Below, one piece after another: positions 1,647 through 32,000 of a stretch of 32,000 bases of DNA. Source of the DNA: an uncultured bacterium (GTDB taxonomy: Bacteria > Auribacterota > JACPWU01); assembly GCA_964640155.1 (NCBI GenBank), contig CAZXEQ010000002.1:330001-362000 (forward strand), written 5' to 3'. Within the stretch, counting starts at the first letter, position 1, and every line of letters starts with the position of its first letter. Below the pieces are notes generated by a model. The model saw nothing but the letters and a program-made list of their open reading frames with translations. It was not told the origin of the DNA and did not search any database. Made by a program: the position numbers and the translations under genes.

Positions 1647-3875
1647 ATGCCTCAAAAAATTATTGTTGTGGGTGGGGTTGCTGGAGGAGCAAGTGCTGCT
1701 GCAAAGGCCAGACGTGTCGATGAACATGCTGAGATTATTATTTTTGAAAGAGGGAGGTATGTCTCTTTTGCAAATTGTGGTTTGCCTTATTATGTGGGGG
1801 GCGCAATCTCCAAGAGAGAGGCTCTTCTACTTCAAACTCCAGAAAGTTTTTGGAAACGTTTCAGAGTTAAAGTGTATATCCTCCAGGAAGTTTTAAGTGT
1901 GGATCGTCCCAATAAAAAAGTGAAAGTTAAAGATCTTGCAACATCTCATGTCTTAGATTTTTCTTATGATAAATTGATTCTTGCGACTGGAGCAGGTGCG
2001 ATCATTCCCCCACTTCCAGGAATTCAAGCCTACAATATTTTTACCGTCAAGACAGTTCCAGATTCTGACAAAATCAAAGAATATATCTCGAAATATCATC
2101 CAAAGCGTGTTGTTGTTGTGGGAGGAGGTTTTATTGGACTTGAATCCGCAGAGGCTTTAAAAAATCTAGGTTTACAAGTGACTTTAGTAGAGGCATTGCC
2201 ACAGATTCTCCCTCCTTTTGATCCGGATATGGCTCGCTTTGTTGCCGATCAGATGACCAATGCAGGGATTGATTTGGTATTGGGAGATGGGATCAAGTCT
2301 TTTCAGGGAGCAGCATTAGCCAATGAAGTTGAATTACAGAGTGGGCGAAAACTTCCCATGGATTTTGCCATTCTTTCGATTGGTGTTCGGCCAGAATTAA
2401 AATTGGCACAGGACGCAGGTTTGATGATCGGTCATTCAGGCGGGATCTCTGTAAATGAATATCAACAGACATCGGATCCCAATATTTATGCAGCGGGAGA
2501 TGCTGTTGAGATTGTGCATCTTGTGACAGGAGAAAAAACAAGAATTCCTCTTGCAGGTCCGGCCAATAAACAAGGGCGTGTGGCTGGAGCTAATGCGGCC
2601 GGAGGACATCTTGTTTTCCCTGGAGCTGTAGGAACGGCAATTGTTGAATGTATGGGAATTACAGCTGCAAAAACAGGCCTTTCGGAAAGGGAAGCAGAAA
2701 AAAATGGATTGAAATTTTATTCGTCTCAAACCCATTCTTTGGATCATGCAGGTTATTATCCTGGAAGTAGTCTGCTCCATATGAAGATGATTGTAGAAAT
2801 AGAAACAGGGCGTTTGCTAGGGGCCCAGGTGATAGGTGAAAAAGGAGTGGATAAACGCATTGATGTATTAGCGACAGCTCTTTTTTGTAAGATGAAAGTC
2901 AGCGACGTTGAAAATTTAGATTTGGCTTATGCTCCTCAATTCTCTTCAGCTAAAGACCCAGTGATTATGGCGGGTTTTGTTGCATCCAATATTCAACGTG
3001 CCGAGTTCAAAGGAATCACTTGTCAAGCTCTTCAAGAAAAACTTCAGAAAAACAAAGATATTCAAATTGTGGATGTTCGCACTCGCGAAGAAGTTGCAAG
3101 TGGCTCGATACCTCAAGCTATTCTTATCCCCCTGGATGAATTGCGAGAATGTTTGGATAAATTAAATCCGGAAAAAGAAACAGTGGTTTATTGTAAAGTA
3201 GGATTAAGAGGATATTTAGCTGCTAGAATATTGGAGCAAAGTGGATTTCATCACGTATTTAATTTGACAGGAGGACTTTTGTCCTGTCCGAGTCATGAAA
3301 AAGCTTTTCATGACATCGGGGGGAAAAATCCTGTTTCGAGTGTGAACGTTCATGAATTAAAAGCAATGGTTGAAAACAAGTCATGCCTTGTTATTGATGT
3401 GAGAGAAAAAGATGAGTTTAGATATGAATTCATTCCTCAGACAAAAAATATTCCTTTAAGTCAGCTGAACTTGGAGAAGAATCAGTTGTCCAAGGAAACT
3501 CCTGTTTATGTGATGTGTCAAGCCGGAGCACGTTCCCGCGTGGCTGTTGATCAGTTGAGATCTTGGGGTTTTACAAGTCCCATTCTTGTCGAAGGAGGGC
3601 TTCAGGCTTGGAAAAATGCAGGTTTTTCGATCAAAAAAGTAGGGCCTCTTCCTCTCATGCGCCAGGTCCAAATTGTTGCAGGAGTATTGATTTTGATAGG
3701 CTCTTTATTACCAGGATTTAAAGGTATTGCAATTTTTGTAGGGGCTGGGCTTGTTTTTGCAGGAGCAAGTGGCTGGTGCGGTATGGCCATGTTGTTACAA
3801 AAGATGCCTTGGAATCAGCGTTTTTCGAAAAACATAAGCTGTGATACCCAGAACTCTCCTTGTTCAAAGAATTAA
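1647..3875 (+). CDS. CoA-disulfide reductase / persulfide reductase-like flavoprotein fused to two rhodanese domains and a DUF2892 (YgaP-like) membrane tail
   Basis: FAD motif VVGGVAGGASAA, redox cysteine in SFANCGLPYY, and second Rossmann motif VVVVGGGFIGLE. Two rhodanese active-site loops follow (CKVGLRG and CQAGARS). The hydrophobic C-terminus ends in GWCGMAMLL. The RBS AAAGGAG ends 6 nt before the ATG. Confidence 0.8.
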   Translation: MPQKIIVVGGVAGGASAAAKARRVDEHAEIIIFERGRYVSFANCGLPYYVGGAISKREALLLQTPESFWKRFRVKVYILQEVLSVDRPNKKVKVKDLATSHVLDFSYDKLILATGAGAIIPPLPGIQAYNIFTVKTVPDSDKIKEYISKYHPKRVVVVGGGFIGLESAEALKNLGLQVTLVEALPQILPPFDPDMARFVADQMTNAGIDLVLGDGIKSFQGAALANEVELQSGRKLPMDFAILSIGVRPELKLAQDAGLMIGHSGGISVNEYQQTSDPNIYAAGDAVEIVHLVTGEKTRIPLAGPANKQGRVAGANAAGGHLVFPGAVGTAIVECMGITAAKTGLSEREAEKNGLKFYSSQTHSLDHAGYYPGSSLLHMKMIVEIETGRLLGAQVIGEKGVDKRIDVLATALFCKMKVSDVENLDLAYAPQFSSAKDPVIMAGFVASNIQRAEFKGITCQALQEKLQKNKDIQIVDVRTREEVASGSIPQAILIPLDELRECLDKLNPEKETVVYCKVGLRGYLAARILEQSGFHHVFNLTGGLLSCPSHEKAFHDIGGKNPVSSVNVHELKAMVENKSCLVIDVREKDEFRYEFIPQTKNIPLSQLNLEKNQLSKETPVYVMCQAGARSRVAVDQLRSWGFTSPILVEGGLQAWKNAGFSIKKVGPLPLMRQVQIVAGVLILIGSLLPGFKGIAIFVGAGLVFAGASGWCGMAMLLQKMPWNQRFSKNISCDTQNSPCSKN

Positions 3876-3949
3876 TAATCAATTTTTGTTTAAAAAATCT
3901 TTTGAATTGTTGTTCTTTTCTAATCTTCTAACATTTATAATTACTCCCT

Positions 3950-5018: not shown

Positions 5019-5105
5019 GGAAGGGTGGCTGAGTGGTTGAAAGCGCGGGTCTCGAAAATCCGTTTCCGAGCAATCGGAACGTGGGTTCGAATCCCACCCC
5101 TTCCG
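5019..5105 (+). tRNA. tRNA-Ser (anticodon CGA)
   Basis: Hand-folded cloverleaf. Acceptor GGAAGGG/CCCTTCC. Anticodon stem CGGGT/ATCCG with loop CTCGAAA. Long variable arm TTCCGA-GCAA-TCGGAA. T arm GTGGG-TTCGAAT-CCCAC. Discriminator G. No CCA is encoded. Confidence 0.9.
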
Positions 5106-5128
5106 ATTCTAAAATTTTTTGAATATAT

Positions 5129-5239
5129 GGTAGGGATTCGAAGGGTACCCGAGCGCGTCCTGTGGACGATGAAGCGAGGGACCCCGGCTCCGGAGGAACG
5201 AATGAAATGAGTGGGGTAGGAGGAATCCCACCCCTTCCG
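5129..5239 (+). repeat. tRNA-linked element, copy A (ends with a 17-nt duplicate of the tRNA-Ser(CGA) 3' end)
   Basis: GAATCCCACCCCTTCCG at 5223-5239 is identical to 5089-5105 inside the tRNA. The 5' end GGGATTCGAAGGG (5132-) is shared with copies B and C. Its GGGATTC is the reverse complement of the element's 3' GAATCCC. Confidence 0.6.
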
Positions 5240-5385
5240 TCAGACTACGCTTCTGGGGGGACTTTGTCTGGCAGTGCCAGGCATGTAATCTTTTAATTTA
5301 AGAAGTAGGTGAGAGGGATCTATTAACTAAGTTATTCAAGTTGTGTTAAGATGTCCGCTAAACATTTAGTTTAAAGGAGGTTATT

Positions 5386-5766
5386 ATGGAAGGAATGGTT
5401 ACACGAAAGGTGGAATTAAGAGGAATTGGATTTTTTTCAGTATTTAAGATTTTTTTCTCAATCATATTGTTTTTTTCATTAGTTTTTCTTATCCTGTTTG
5501 ATCTTTTTGGCTTTCAAATTGTGGGGACTTTGGCTGGATGGATAGGGGATATCAGACAGCTTTTTGTTGATTTGCAAACAAAGTTTCCAAGTATTTTTGA
5601 TAACAAGATATTATTTTCTTTGTTTCAATCTTTGTTATTAGGACTTATTTTAGGGCTGTTTATTGGTATTGCAACAGGCATTTTCAACCTTTTTGTAGCT
5701 CTTTTAGGTGGATTGAGTATTAAAATTAGAGAGAAGACCCCCGAGAAAAAAACATCATATCTTTAA
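5386..5766 (+). CDS. small hydrophobic membrane protein, function unknown
   Basis: This is a 126-aa ORF with a strong RBS (AAAGGAGG, 5 nt spacer, ATG). It has several long hydrophobic segments (FFSVFKIFFSIILFFSLVFLILF, LLLGLILGLFIGIATGIF). I recognise no family. Confidence 0.55.
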   Translation: MEGMVTRKVELRGIGFFSVFKIFFSIILFFSLVFLILFDLFGFQIVGTLAGWIGDIRQLFVDLQTKFPSIFDNKILFSLFQSLLLGLILGLFIGIATGIFNLFVALLGGLSIKIREKTPEKKTSYL

Positions 5767-5860
5767 AACTAGGGGATGGGGAGTAGGGCATAGGGTTTAG
5801 GGGAGGTAAGTATGAAAGTATTTTATCCCTGAATTTTAAGCTCTACTCTCTATTTTTGTC

Positions 5861-5934
5861 GCGCCCGTAGCTCAGCTGGATAGAGCACTTGCCTACGAAG
5901 CAAGGGGCCACAGGTTCAAATCCTGTCGGGCGCA
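5861..5934 (+). tRNA. tRNA-Arg (anticodon ACG)
   Basis: Acceptor GCGCCCG/CGGGCGC. D arm GCTC-AGCTGGATA-GAGC. Anticodon stem CTTGC/GCAAG with loop CTACGAA. T arm ACAGG-TTCAAAT-CCTGT. Discriminator A. Confidence 0.9.
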
Positions 5935-5974
5935 CGAATTCACGAGTGCAATAATTACTTGAGTCATTAACGGC

Positions 5975-6065
5975 AGGATTTGAAGGGAGGGCCGGGTGGC
6001 CGACTTGTAGGTCGAAGACCGGAAGGCACCAAATCCTCTCTCCGGAGACGGGCATGCTGTCGGGC
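5975..6065 (+). repeat. tRNA-linked element, copy B
   Basis: It shares AGGATTTGAAGGGAGGGCCGGGTGGCCGAC with copy C. The internal AAATCCTCTCTCCG resembles the tRNA-Ser(GCU) 3' end. CTGTCGGGC (6057-6065) repeats 5923-5931 of tRNA-Arg. The ends AGGATTTG and CAAATCCT are complementary. Confidence 0.5.
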
Positions 6066-6077
6066 CCCAAACTTTAT

Positions 6078-6569
6078 ATGAAGTGTGAATGTATGATACA
6101 AGAGACTCCTATTGATGAAAAAGATATAAAGTATATGACTGAAGCTTTGAAAGAAGCTCAGTATGCTTTTGATGATGGAGAAACACCTGTAGGAGCTTGT
6201 ATTGTGTATGAAGGGAAAATTATTGCACGCTCTCATAATCAAGTGGAGCTTTTAAGAGATTCTACGGCTCATGCTGAGATGATTGCCATGACTCAAGCTG
6301 CCGATTTTCTGAATAACTGGCGATTGTTAAATTGTACACTTTATGTGACAAAAGAGCCTTGTTTGATGTGCACAGGTGCGATTTTGCTTTCAAGAATTCC
6401 TCGGCTTGTTTTTGGTGCTTTTGATGTGAGAAATAGGGGATTAAGAGATTTAATTCATCCAGGTTATGAACCAGAAATGAAACAATTAAATATAGTGCAG
6501 GGAGTTTTAGAAGCAGATTGTCAATTTCTTTTGAAAGAATTTTTTAAGAAGGCTAGAGAAAAATCATAG
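6078..6569 (+). CDS. tadA: tRNA-specific adenosine deaminase
   Basis: Deaminase zinc motifs HAEMIA and PCLMCTGA, with TadA-like size and the context GETPVGACIV. The track ORF starts at 6054 inside repeat B. ATG 6078 or 6093 is the more plausible start. Confidence 0.8.
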   Translation: MKCECMIQETPIDEKDIKYMTEALKEAQYAFDDGETPVGACIVYEGKIIARSHNQVELLRDSTAHAEMIAMTQAADFLNNWRLLNCTLYVTKEPCLMCTGAILLSRIPRLVFGAFDVRNRGLRDLIHPGYEPEMKQLNIVQGVLEADCQFLLKEFFKKAREKS

Positions 6570-6623: not shown

Positions 6624-6712
6624 GGAGAGGTGGCTGAGTGGCCTAAAGCGACGGCTTGCTAAGCCGTTGTACTGTTAATTCAGTACCGGGGGTTCGAATC
6701 CCCCCCTCTCCG
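6624..6712 (+). tRNA. tRNA-Ser (anticodon GCT)
   Basis: Acceptor GGAGAGG/CCTCTCC. Anticodon stem ACGGC/GCCGT with loop TTGCTAA. Long variable arm GTACTG-TTAATT-CAGTAC. T arm GGGGG-TTCGAAT-CCCCC. Discriminator G. Confidence 0.9.
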
Positions 6713-6913
6713 AAGTTTATTGGTAGCTTTAAAGTTAGCGGAAAGCAGCTTGAGCAAGAGGTCCATGTCGGTTATTGGGATTCGAAGGGAGGCCTGACAT
6801 AGCATAATGCAAATCATGCACTGCATGATTTGCGACTGTTAGGAGGGCCGGGTGGCCGACCGGAGTGAGTGTAACGAACGTAGGCGCCGAATCCCCCCCT
6901 CTCCGAAGTTTAT
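6713..6913 (+). repeat. tRNA-linked element, copy C (bounded by a 26-nt direct repeat of the tRNA-Ser(GCU) 3' end plus 8 flanking nt)
   Basis: CGAATCCCCCCCTCTCCGAAGTTTAT occurs at 6695-6720 and again at 6888-6913. The conserved core GGGATTCGAAGGGAGG starts at 6777, and GGAGGGCCGGGTGGCCGAC is at 6842-6860. An extra perfect 11-bp hairpin lies at 6809-6833. Confidence 0.65.
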
Positions 6914-7602
6914 CAAATCCATCCGGCAAAGAAAGCCACACGTCCTTCTATATTCATTTTATAATTTTTGAAATTTTGGCTCAGAACTTTCTCCAAATCA
7001 GTCGCAGAATCTTTCTGATTTCCAAAAATTCCCTTCTTATTATAGAGATTCATTAATTTTCTTCCTAGAAAGTTGTGTTCAATCCCTCCTCCCAAAATAG
7101 TTGTTCCAAAAATAACTCCTTGGGAACCCATCAAAGGTTTTAAGTGTTCAAAAACCTTTGCTTTATCTTGCATGTTTCCTGGAAGACAATGAAGAAGATA
7201 TCCAAGTCCTATGGATGTGAAGTTTTTCTCATTCAATGGAATGGGCTTGAGAACGTTTGCAACAAGTGTTTTAGGACGATACCGAGCAATGCGTCTGGTG
7301 GTGACCTCTAGACAATGAGGATTTAGATCCAAAAGAGTCAAAGAGAGATGCTGTGACGGGAATTGGCATTTATCTAAAAAGTAACCAGTTCCTACACCCA
7401 CTTCTAAATGATGATCCGTTACATGATTGTTGTAAAAATCTAAAATTTTTTTTGTAGAACATTTCCATGCAAAATGATTTGAAAGTCCTAAAACAAAAAG
7501 ATCATAGAGAGATAATACAAGCTTGGTATATACTGCTGCTCCAGAGTTTTCAGATGTATGTGTAGGGGCCATATGAACCTGGTTTTTCATGCAAGATAAC
7601 AT
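6913..7602 (-). CDS. class I SAM-dependent methyltransferase
   Basis: This is a 229-aa ORF with SAM motif I, HLEVGVGTGYFLD, followed by LTLLDLNP. The start is uncertain (Met codons at 7602, 7590 and 7572). The stop codon abuts the end of repeat C. Confidence 0.6.
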   Translation of the reverse strand: MLSCMKNQVHMAPTHTSENSGAAVYTKLVLSLYDLFVLGLSNHFAWKCSTKKILDFYNNHVTDHHLEVGVGTGYFLDKCQFPSQHLSLTLLDLNPHCLEVTTRRIARYRPKTLVANVLKPIPLNEKNFTSIGLGYLLHCLPGNMQDKAKVFEHLKPLMGSQGVIFGTTILGGGIEHNFLGRKLMNLYNKKGIFGNQKDSATDLEKVLSQNFKNYKMNIEGRVAFFAGWI

Positions 7603-31709: not shown

Positions 31710-32000
31710 TTAAAGCTTTCTTACTTTGACATGAGCTTCTTCTAATAAGCGTAGACTTACATCCCCTACAGAATAGGCATGACTATAAACAACTTCTTTG
31801 ATGCCACTATTGATAATCATTTTGGTACACATCAGACAAGGTGAAAAAGTAGAGTAAATTGTAGAGTCTTTAATGCTGACCCCATGATAAGCCGATTGTG
31901 TGATCGCATTTTCTTCAGCATGTGAGCATAAACATTCATCGAGCTGAGTCCCTTGTTGGGAGAAGCTGTTGCATCGTAGACAACCTCCATCCATACAATT
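31710..32000 (-). CDS. dCMP deaminase (ComEB-like), N-terminus beyond the window
   Basis: Zinc motifs HAEENAI and PCLMCTKMIINSGI. The frame stays open from 31994 to the window edge, and known family members have about 50 more N-terminal residues. Confidence 0.8.
   Translation of the reverse strand, partial: NCMDGGCLRCNSFSQQGTQLDECLCSHAEENAITQSAYHGVSIKDSTIYSTFSPCLMCTKMIINSGIKEVVYSHAYSVGDVSLRLLEEAHVKVRKL

Follow-up and report, generated by a model that had tools for sequence, protein, structure and literature searches.

A tRNA-matched structured-RNA module behind tRNA-Ser(GCU) of an uncultured Auribacterota bacterium and its counterparts in other bacterial phyla

What kind of element lies between two copies of a tRNA 3′ end in the genome of an uncultured bacterium from the Auribacterota? 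The stretch of DNA which was analyzed (the window) consists of 32,000 nt from contig CAZXEQ010000002.1 (assembly GCA_964640155.1, positions 330,001 to 362,000). All positions are window positions unless a locus from elsewhere is named (L followed by a number). The 3′ ends of tRNA genes are the classic landing site of integrase-borne islands, and an earlier note, made from the sequence alone, had read a direct repeat at the tRNA-Ser(GCU) gene as the classic signature of site-specific integration. Site-specific insertion at the tRNA 3′ end is retained in our analysis. The assumption of an integrase attachment scar is not, as neither an integrase nor a parent element was found near about 25 copies or in phage, plasmid, and viral sets. 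The unit at this locus (unit C) belongs to a family of structured-RNA modules which are matched to tRNAs, occur in several phyla, and have not been catalogued. Its parts are the following.

6624..6712, plus strand: intact tRNA-Ser(GCU), the target of the module and its upstream partner (ARAGORN; Rfam tRNA model, 62.6 bits)
6695..6720, plus strand: proximal repeat copy, consisting of tRNA C56-G73 and 8 nt of flank, AAGTTTAT (exact 26-mer; 0 of 100 shuffles)
6721..6776, plus strand: AT-rich spacer of 56 bp (from the sequence)
6777..6784, plus strand: 5′ arm GGGATTCG, reverse complement of the 3′ strand of the tRNA T-loop/T-stem (C56-C63); partner of 6888–6895 in helix P1
6785..6887, plus strand: conserved three-way-junction core (covariance model R1, covariation, conservation versus L002)
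6888..6913, plus strand: distal repeat copy, consisting of CGAATCCC (3′ strand of P1), CCCCTCTCCG (unpaired tail), and AAGTTTAT (flank copy)

The 26-mer CGAATCCCCCCCTCTCCGAAGTTTAT occurs exactly twice, at 6695–6720 and 6888–6913, and was matched in none of 100 shuffles. It runs from C56 in the T-loop to the discriminator G73 (18 nt) and then for another 8 nt. This extension beyond the tRNA, already noticed previously, is real, as ARAGORN and the Rfam tRNA model agree on a tRNA end at 6712. The tail CCCCTCTCCG in the distal copy is identical to the acceptor 3′ strand of the tRNA with its discriminator. Only 167 bp separate the two copies, which is too small for an integrase, as the earlier note had also stated. 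Its description of this insert as GC-rich and structured applies to the right part of about 110 bp (6777–6887; GC 0.49–0.57 vs. a background of about 0.3–0.4), the left 56 bp being the AT-rich spacer. Its claim of complementary insert termini corresponds to the 5′ arm GGGATTCG (6777–6784) and CGAATCCC (6888–6895), the latter opening the distal copy. The core motifs which it took as common to a family were found again: GGATTCGAAGGG at 6778 and GGAGGGCCGGGTGGCCGAC at 6842 both recur 3′ of tRNA-Arg, at 5976 and 5986. A convergent methyltransferase open reading frame (ORF) is located on the minus strand (6913–7602), and its stop codon (6913–6915) overlaps the last repeat base, again as noted before. 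A consensus scan of the module (6713–6913) detected no sigma-70-like promoter and no terminator-like site.

A chance repeat or an assembly artefact would be the most trivial explanation. One observation points that way: L001, a Logan assembly contig from the same organism, ends near the proximal repeat copy. The repeat is an exact 26-mer which the shuffles never reproduced, and the same structure is present in the independent assembly L002 and at about 25 loci from other projects. We consider this explanation to be refuted by the independent assemblies and give it practically no credence.

The unit is not confined to this locus. About 25 homologous copies were located in Auribacterota, Omnitrophota, Planctomycetales, and metagenomes. 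A covariance model built here (R1) recovers 23 copies at E ≤ 1e-8 and scores the whole module of unit C (6768–6912) with 118.8 bits (E 1.7e-29). The GTDB genomes were scanned with one exact 19-mer, GGAGGGCCGGGTGGCCGAC. Among the matches listed, most were chance matches in high-GC genomes, the others being true members from Candidatus Auribacterota, Omnitrophota, and Planctomycetales. All 14 loci returned by a two-block pattern scan of metagenomes proved to be true members.

Nearly all copies directly follow a tRNA or tmRNA gene on its 3′ side and share its orientation. The tRNAs followed by R1 copies are those for Ser, Thr, Arg, Pro, Val, Leu, and Glu, the same core being joined to more than 10 different tRNA identities. 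One copy (L017) follows a tmRNA gene (Rfam, 104 bits), and one in L137 follows a tRNA which is interrupted by a group I intron. This intron (5479–5783, minus strand; Rfam, 47.5 bits, E 7e-11, just under the gathering score) splits a tRNA that ARAGORN missed, and it is the second family-1 module of that locus (5268–5416) which follows the split tRNA.

The order of parts is the same throughout: a short T- or AT-rich spacer (12–20 nt and T-rich in GC-rich members), the 5′ arm, the three-way-junction core, and a second tRNA copy from C56 to the discriminator, to which some members add a few flank bases. The unit period is 145–243 bp. Each 3′ end repeats C56 to position 73 of its own neighboring tRNA, usually as an exact repeat of 18–19 nt, and exact repeats of 18–35 nt are found at 16 loci besides the window. 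The 5′ arm of every copy is complementary to the adjacent tRNA from C56 into the 3′ strand of the T-stem, so that P1 comprises 7–13 bp contiguous from C56. The left edge of the repeat is fixed (C56-A58), and its right edge is variable (18–35 nt in total). Flank is included for 8 nt in the window, for 10 nt in the tRNA-Arg copy of L139 (CCA and 7 nt), and for 6 nt in the tRNA-Arg copy of L138; L073 also carries flank. With respect to the CCA triplet, L017 and L049 have it after the distal copy of the tRNA 3′ end and not after the proximal, functional one; L130 has it after the second tandem unit and not after the first; and the tRNA-Arg site of L139 has it on both copies.

A consensus fold was obtained from a MAFFT alignment of 17 members using RNAalifold. 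It is a three-way junction. P1 is built from the two arms and is followed by the junction strand GAAGGGA. Within P2 (GGCCC-GA-C with G-GA-GGGCC) lie a variable helix and the P3 hairpin, and GGGU follows P2. The P5 hairpin is located within P4, which in turn adjoins the 3′ strand of P1. The corresponding parts of unit C are as follows.

Directly before the 5′ strand of P2: junction AAGGGA
6791–6798 with 6842–6849, plus strand: P2, GGCCT-GA-C with G-GA-GGGCC
6809–6833, plus strand: P3 hairpin
Between P2 and P4, plus strand: GGGU
6854–6861 with 6883–6887, plus strand: P4, GGCCGACC (5′ strand) with GGCGC
About 6866–6880, plus strand: P5 hairpin

In the MAFFT alignment, 86.4% of the cells are paired (slid controls: 36–42%), 14 of 30 pairs show changes on both sides, and none of 500 shuffles reached the observed values. 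The figures are 86.7% (slid controls: 37–41%), 21 of 30, and 0 of 500 for a model-fitted alignment of 23 members, which is biased toward the structure of the model, the MAFFT alignment being independent of it. Three of the pairs changed on both sides in the model-fitted set fall into the otherwise invariant P2. Compensatory changes occur in every helix from P1 to P5, for example GCUCCGAC:GUCGGAGC in place of GGCCCGAC:GGGAGGGCC in the tRNA-Thr(UGU) copy of L029 and a G:C to C:G swap in P4 of L126. Mismatches in paired columns are strongly skewed (54 G.A vs. 4 C.T), and such purine-specific tandem G.A motifs place the fold on the tRNA strand. The core is rich in these motifs, which also suggest a protein partner. 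The module is therefore a structured RNA encoded on the plus strand, which is also the strand of the tRNA.

When the 290 nt from 6624 to 6913 are folded together, the minimum-free-energy structure pairs the 5′ acceptor strand of the tRNA with the distal tail (z = −3.95). A pseudoknot between the junction GAAGGGAGG and the 3′ tail was discarded because it works only in tRNA-Ser copies, the tails from tRNA-Arg and tRNA-Pro being unable to pair. A deviating arrangement is found in L129 (about 390–631) and L133 (1117–1340, minus strand), where the core resides within a truncated tRNA-Glu adjoining an intact tRNA-Glu. There, the 5′ portion of the tRNA extends to the T-stem strand, and between it and a diverged tRNA-Glu 3′ end lie first a hairpin which covaries (CTGGCTCCCCAACGGGGAGCCAG in L129, CTGGCTCCCGCAGGGAGCCAG in L133) and then the core.

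The comparison with L002 shows how strongly this RNA is conserved. The core is 0.98 identical (one substitution in 111 nt), close to the value of tRNA-Ser(GCU) itself (0.97). Identity is 0.83 in the spacer after the tRNA (6713–6776), 0.78–0.81 in the two flanking coding sequences, and 0.61 in the neutral intergenic DNA between tadA and the tRNA. One difference in 111 nt against 61% identity in neutral DNA indicates that the core is under purifying selection, and its conservation equals that of the tRNA. Even where the flanks have fully diverged, the unpaired tail and the acceptor 3′ strand of the tRNA are still identical, which argues that the tail itself is functional. The distal copy of L002 (5670–5697) has a run of nine C, the window and both proximal copies having seven; this is either a length polymorphism of the homopolymer or an assembly error.

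Is the module an insertion at all? Four syntenic loci with the gene order tRNA-Arg(ACG), tadA, tRNA-Ser(GCU) were retrieved via TadA homologs and can be compared with the window.

Window: tRNA-Ser(GCU) site with a full family-1 module; tRNA-Arg(ACG) site with a deletion derivative (41.8 bits)
L002: tRNA-Ser(GCU) site with a full family-1 module; tRNA-Arg(ACG) site empty
L139: tRNA-Ser(GCU) site with a family-1 module (83.5 bits); tRNA-Arg(ACG) site with a partial module (44.2 bits)
L138: tRNA-Ser(GCU) site with a family-2 module; tRNA-Arg(ACG) site with a full family-1 module (93.4 bits)
L140: tRNA-Ser(GCU) site empty, the tRNA being followed by CCAATTTTTTTT; tRNA-Arg(ACG) site empty

In addition, L130 carries a tandem copy, and L131 has a truncated second unit. 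The cores within a truncated tRNA-Glu in L129 and L133 also speak for insertion and decay. The occupancy of one and the same tRNA site thus differs among syntenic relatives, so that the module is an insertion, and this insertion leaves the tRNA whole. The earlier note had proposed to look for empty sites in related genomes and would have found its mobility hypothesis hard to sustain if all of them were filled. L140, where CCAATTTTTTTT directly follows the tRNA, and L138, which has a different element at that position, keep the insertion idea alive: occupancy is polymorphic and the tRNA intact. When synteny was followed from the methyltransferase gene, only unrelated cyanobacterial contexts were found beyond the nearest relative.

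These data bear on the view that the module never moved and is a cis-acting trailer RNA which evolved in the host, serving the tRNA transcript as a domain for regulation or processing and giving rise to new copies by rare duplication. In variants of this view, the 5′ arm pairs either with the T-arm of its own tRNA or with the distal copy, or the tail pairs with the 5′ acceptor strand, resulting in a "super-tRNA" from which the core projects at the T-loop. Much of the above fits: the strong purifying selection, with a core as conserved as the tRNA; the common orientation with the tRNA and spacers too short for a separate promoter; a tail with 18/18 identity to the tRNA even in old paralogs; the predicted pairing of the acceptor strand with the distal tail over 6624–6913; and, in L129 and L133, a core inside the tRNA-Glu T-loop, between the strands of the T-stem. 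Such a trailer does not account for the patchy occupancy among close relatives, for two unrelated cores at the same site in different genomes, for tandem copies and truncated remnants, or for genome-specific flank within the repeats. Moreover, the acceptor stem of the presumed "super-tRNA" in L129 does not pair. On balance, we consider a purely host-evolved trailer unlikely.

If the module is an insertion, the machinery that placed it might be expected nearby. The window ORFs are all housekeeping according to Pfam scans (CoA-disulfide-reductase-like, methyltransferases, TadA, DnaX, RecR, FtsH, PdxJ, a penicillin-binding protein, alpha-2-macroglobulin, and others). No integrase, transposase, reverse transcriptase, or recurrent protein gene was found near any of the about 25 copies. 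An all-against-all BLAST of the ORFs from 21 loci revealed no common protein gene within about 3.5 kb of any copy; clusters consisted only of spurious ORFs over the RNA, of local synteny, and of one AsmA/DUF748 gene present in two loci. Neither an integrase nor a larger element lies between tRNA and core at any locus. BLAST against a phage collection returned matches to tRNAs only, plasmids gave no match, and none of the 55 loci returned by three pattern scans of IMG/VR scored with R1, so that no family member was obtained there. No autonomous parent with the same ends was found in the retrieved loci or in the phage, plasmid, and IMG/VR collections, the genome-wide scan having covered the listed matches of one exact 19-mer.

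Known RNA families do not cover the module either. Rfam 15, applied with gathering and with permissive E-value thresholds to the window and eight loci, has no family that matches it, whether among hammerhead, HDV-like, twister, pistol, and hatchet RNAs, tmRNA, group I introns, RAGATH motifs, or any other. The Rfam matches (tRNA, tmRNA, RNase P, and one group I intron) are all outside, the best one inside being RAGATH-33 with 15 bits (threshold 120). Two candidates were rejected. The motif GGAUUCGA resembles the 5′ domain of tmRNA; ARAGORN reports no tmRNA in the window, and the permuted-tmRNA model reaches 13.6 bits (threshold 47). A group I intron or another T-loop intron was discarded in view of the small size of the module, of boundaries unsuitable for an intron, and of the lack of a matching Rfam model. 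A literature search by sequence and keywords did not yield any description of the motif among the papers that were searchable.

The searches weigh on a second rival, by which the module is a decayed remnant, or a derivative resembling a cis-mobilizable element (CIME), of islands whose tyrosine integrase recognizes the T-loop of tRNA or tmRNA genes. The repeats would then be attL and attR and the core the sequence adjacent to the attachment site. A repeat which begins in the T-loop and ends at the tRNA end, the targeting of a tmRNA gene, empty sites together with tandem accretion, and the CCA which L017 and L049 have after the distal copy only are all as expected for such a remnant. That no integrase or larger element is found between tRNA and core at any locus, and no match in the phage, plasmid, and IMG/VR collections, is not. 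A core on more than 10 tRNA identities is inexplicable by one integrase specificity. Decaying DNA next to an attachment site is also at odds with a core that shows RNA-type covariation and strong purifying selection. An imported attP fares no better: the repeat often includes flank which is specific to the genome concerned, and this flank identity, local to each genome, fits a locally generated duplication better. We regard an island remnant as quite improbable.

We assign the same low likelihood to a third rival, a guide RNA of an RNA-guided DNA-targeting system, similar to the anchor crRNA of type V-K CRISPR-associated transposons (CAST) or to the omega RNA of TnpB/IscB. In this view, the core would serve as scaffold, the 3′ segment of 18 nt as guide to the tRNA gene, and G53-T54-T55 as a GTN-type motif. 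The 3′ segment has indeed at least 18 nt, is identical to the tRNA strand, and starts right after GTT. The distance of the module start from the GTN motif, any flank copy included, ranges from 21–31 nt to about 90 nt. The match next to a GTN motif is near-trivial, as GTTC is universal in T-loops. Neither cas12k, tnsB/tnsC/tniQ, tnpB, iscB, tnpA, nor a recurrent protein gene is found near any copy (window Pfam scans; clustering of neighboring ORFs), and Rfam and the phage collection hold no match. The 7–13 nt of the putative guide proximal to the protospacer-adjacent motif (PAM) are sequestered in P1, and the segment is in direct orientation rather than inverted like the CAST anchor (PMC9938897). 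A test for IS110/IS1111-type DEDD/RuvC-like enzymes detected no recombinase in the window or among neighboring ORFs. In the RNA itself, the target-matched variable parts are the terminal helix and the tail, and the internal loops are conserved, unlike in bridge and seek RNAs, where two internal loops carry split guides.

We thus favor, by a modest degree, a protein-less insertion module which is specific for tRNA 3′ ends, carries a functional RNA as payload, is probably cotranscribed with the tRNA, and occurs in bacteria of the Planctomycetes-Verrucomicrobia-Chlamydiae (PVC) group. The module would be read through from the tRNA promoter, as the 12–20-nt spacers of GC-rich members leave no room for a promoter of its own. 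The 3′ arm and the tail would stem from the target by a local duplication with its left edge fixed in the T-loop and its right edge variable; given the genome-specific flank within the repeat and these edges, local duplication is simpler than an imported attP. Compensatory evolution may preserve the complementarity of the 5′ arm to the 3′ arm, helix P1 being required. The variable length of the 5′ arm (7–13 bp) fits stepwise compensatory changes, so that no special writing mechanism is required. Insertion would depend on an enzyme encoded elsewhere, and the inserted RNA would be useful enough for selection to keep it. It probably acts through its tRNA-identical 3′ end, either by pairing with the 5′ acceptor strand of the tRNA or by competing with the tRNA for a factor that reads this end. 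Our guess is a mimicry of the tRNA 3′ half within the read-through transcript. We favor this on account of the modeled 290-nt fold, in which the tail pairs with the 5′ acceptor strand, and of the tRNA-Glu variants, which place the core between the strands of the T-stem.

A more far-reaching proposal is put forward only tentatively, as we find it rather doubtful. The modules might represent a new class of protein-less element, each being hardly more than one structured RNA gene with a copy and a complement of its target (tRNA T-loop to 3′ end). This RNA would use both to guide its insertion to positions behind tRNA and tmRNA genes, which would proceed by an RNA-guided enzyme encoded elsewhere, by reverse transcription of the read-through transcript, or by catalysis on the part of the RNA itself. 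Several PVC-group phyla would then have retained it as a functional trailer RNA of the tRNA.

Several observations weigh against the insertion module that we favor. Paralogous cores at different tRNAs within one genome are only 62–80% identical, which indicates that the copies are old and separately maintained and that there was no recent burst; homogenization of copies within a genome was not seen in this comparison. Any spread would therefore be old, and a purely host-evolved RNA family is conceivable. Most repeats end exactly at the tRNA end, and this is compatible with a decayed target duplication and equally with selection on a tail that mimics the tRNA. The 3′ arms of L026 and L134 are unrelated to any tRNA, and L127 has no tRNA upstream. 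The wobble pairs (19 G.U vs. 17 A.C) are of no help in assigning the strand. Finally, no enzyme, excised form, or donor copy was seen among the retrieved data, so that it is the pattern of presence and absence from which mobility is inferred.

All three tRNAs of the window are followed by a GC-rich element starting with GGATTYGAAGGG.

Unit A, 5124..5246, plus strand: after tRNA-Ser(CGA) (5019–5105), second family with a different core
Unit B, 5966..6069, plus strand: after tRNA-Arg(ACG) (5861–5935), family 1, deletion derivative
Unit C, 6768–6913, plus strand: after tRNA-Ser(GCU), family 1, full length

Units B and C have the 19-mer GGAGGGCCGGGTGGCCGAC in common. R1 scores unit B (5966–6054) with 41.8 bits (E 1.5e-9), 56 model positions being replaced by 1 nt. 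Its 5′ arm GGCAGGATTTG (5972–5982) is present, P2 and P3 are deleted, and P4 and P5 are kept. The 3′ arm CAAATCCT (6030–6037) is followed by a 19-nt insert, CTCTCCGGAGACGGGCATG (6038–6056), and by CTGTCGGGCCCCA (6057–6069), which corresponds to a decayed tRNA-Arg 3′ end. The first part of the insert CTCTCCGGAGACGGGCATG resembles the acceptor tail of tRNA-Ser(GCU). Annotations currently misread such modules, with spurious ORFs called over the core, for example, or with the tadA ORF extended at its N-terminal end. The long tadA call in the window (start at 6054) begins within unit B, and the database protein (158 aa) starts at 6093.

Unit A belongs to a second family of the same design as family 1. 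Its core (GAAGGGTACCCGAGCGC...GGAGGAATCC) is unlike that of family 1, and R1 assigns only 8.9 bits. It has the 5′ arm GGGATTC, a two-arm junction, and the 3′ copy GAATCCCACCCCTTCCG at 5224–5240. It is about 85% identical to the element after tRNA-Ser(GCU) in L138 (1340–1478), and both follow the same plan, with P1 formed from the arms, two internal arms, and three compensatory pairs. Their 3′ arms differ exactly as the adjacent tRNAs do (...CCCACCCCTTCCG in the window, next to tRNA-Ser(CGA), vs. ...CCCCCCCTCTCCG in L138, next to tRNA-Ser(GCU)). A terminator-like hairpin (5265–5283) is located 3′ of unit A.

Other insertions at tRNA genes were observed among the relatives. In L139 (1633–1779), tRNA-Ser(CGA) is followed by an insert of a third kind with a length of about 130 nt; it has an 18-nt end repeat, CGAATCCCACCCCTTCCG, contains GAAGGGAGCGAC, and shows no obvious complementary 5′ arm. 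Small GIY-YIG nuclease ORFs are encoded just upstream of tRNA-Ser genes in L138 (944–1242; a 46-aa fragment) and L139 (1100–1409; 81 aa). They are preceded by a partial duplicate of the 5′ part of the same tRNA, which in L138 ends with GGGGGTTCG in the T-loop. These loci are a mirror image within the same lineage, with insertion at the 5′ side of tRNA genes. The P5 loop of the L049 module harbors a palindromic, REP-like repeat (CCCCCGATGCTTCGCTTTGCGAAGCAAAGC..GGGGGG; 3850–3905), and further occurrences of this repeat are found in the two Planctomycetales contigs, L049 (upstream, about 3550–3600) and L026 (oriented, about 5730–5780).

Upstream of tRNA-Arg(ACG), a hydrophobic 126-aa hypothetical protein without Pfam match is conserved in the window (5386–5766), L139 (2050–2430), and L140 (1779–2159). 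In the window and in L139, its gene is located between tRNA-Ser(CGA) and tRNA-Arg(ACG). A different gene at this position in L002 points to a local rearrangement. Toward the end of the window (31710–31994, minus strand), a 94-aa ORF matches only the C-terminal half of a cytidine/deoxycytidylate deaminase domain and is possibly a truncated gene or a fragment.

The landing site known from integrase-borne islands is used here by 150–240-bp units which lack a gene of their own and carry a folded, deeply conserved RNA whose ends are matched tRNA by tRNA. If it is true that this RNA specifies its own target, the modules would constitute a minimal programmable insertion system. If they are host RNAs, they would represent an unrecognized layer of tRNA-linked RNA biology in the poorly studied Auribacterota, Omnitrophota, and Planctomycetota. 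The family is missing from Rfam, and model R1 makes it searchable.

Comparison with known systems reveals partial likeness to several of them. Type V-K CAST use a 17-nt anchor spacer against a tRNA gene, with a GTN PAM and a left end 46–82 nt from this PAM (PMC9938897). They share with our modules a tRNA-identical segment (17 nt there, 18 nt here) beside a GTN motif in the tRNA gene and an element start a few tens of nt downstream of the tRNA. Unlike CAST, the modules are accompanied by neither cas12k, tnsB, tnsC, or tniQ nor a CRISPR array. They occur in PVC-group phyla, not in cyanobacteria, and have a direct segment, about half of which is paired in P1, and an unrelated scaffold.

OMEGA guide RNAs (the omega RNAs of TnpB and IscB) consist of a structured scaffold and a guide which is taken from the DNA next to the transposon end. 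This resembles the structured scaffold of about 110 nt found here, followed by a 3′ sequence equal to flanking target DNA. In contrast to them, no TnpB, IscB, or TnpA gene is nearby, no HEARO or omega-type Rfam family matches, and the target half is copied upstream as well, which leaves the tRNA intact. An IS200/IS605 omega RNA or a PATE is likewise unsupported, as no tnpB or tnpA gene was found in the window or among neighboring ORFs.

Small RNAs from tRNA 3′ external transcribed spacers (3′ETS, e.g., 3′ETS-leuZ) and tRNA-like 3′ modules (tmRNA, viral tRNA-like structures, mascRNA) also derive from or lie beside a tRNA transcript and have tRNA features at the 3′ end. The modules differ in that only the 3′ half (C56–73) is copied, specifically for each adjacent tRNA, and in that ARAGORN and Rfam see no tRNA-like or tmRNA-like unit within them. 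Miniature inverted-repeat transposable elements and short interspersed elements are likewise small, structured, and protein-less, with several copies per genome and a duplication having one fixed and one variable edge. They are set apart by the strict specificity for tRNA 3′ ends seen here, by ends that vary with the target rather than being fixed terminal repeats, by the lack of an identified partner transposase or reverse transcriptase, and by copies which are old and under selection.

Islands and prophages with a tyrosine integrase of the T-loop class integrate into tRNA and tmRNA genes, and CIMEs are their integrase-less derivatives. Both have in common with the modules the direct repeat from the T-loop to the 3′ end, the intact tRNA, tmRNA targets, empty and filled alleles, and tandem accretion. 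The modules have neither an integrase nor a parent island, and their unit is only 145–243 bp. Unlike such islands, they join one core to more than 10 tRNA identities, possess a 5′ arm complementary to the target, and have as their core a covarying RNA under purifying selection.

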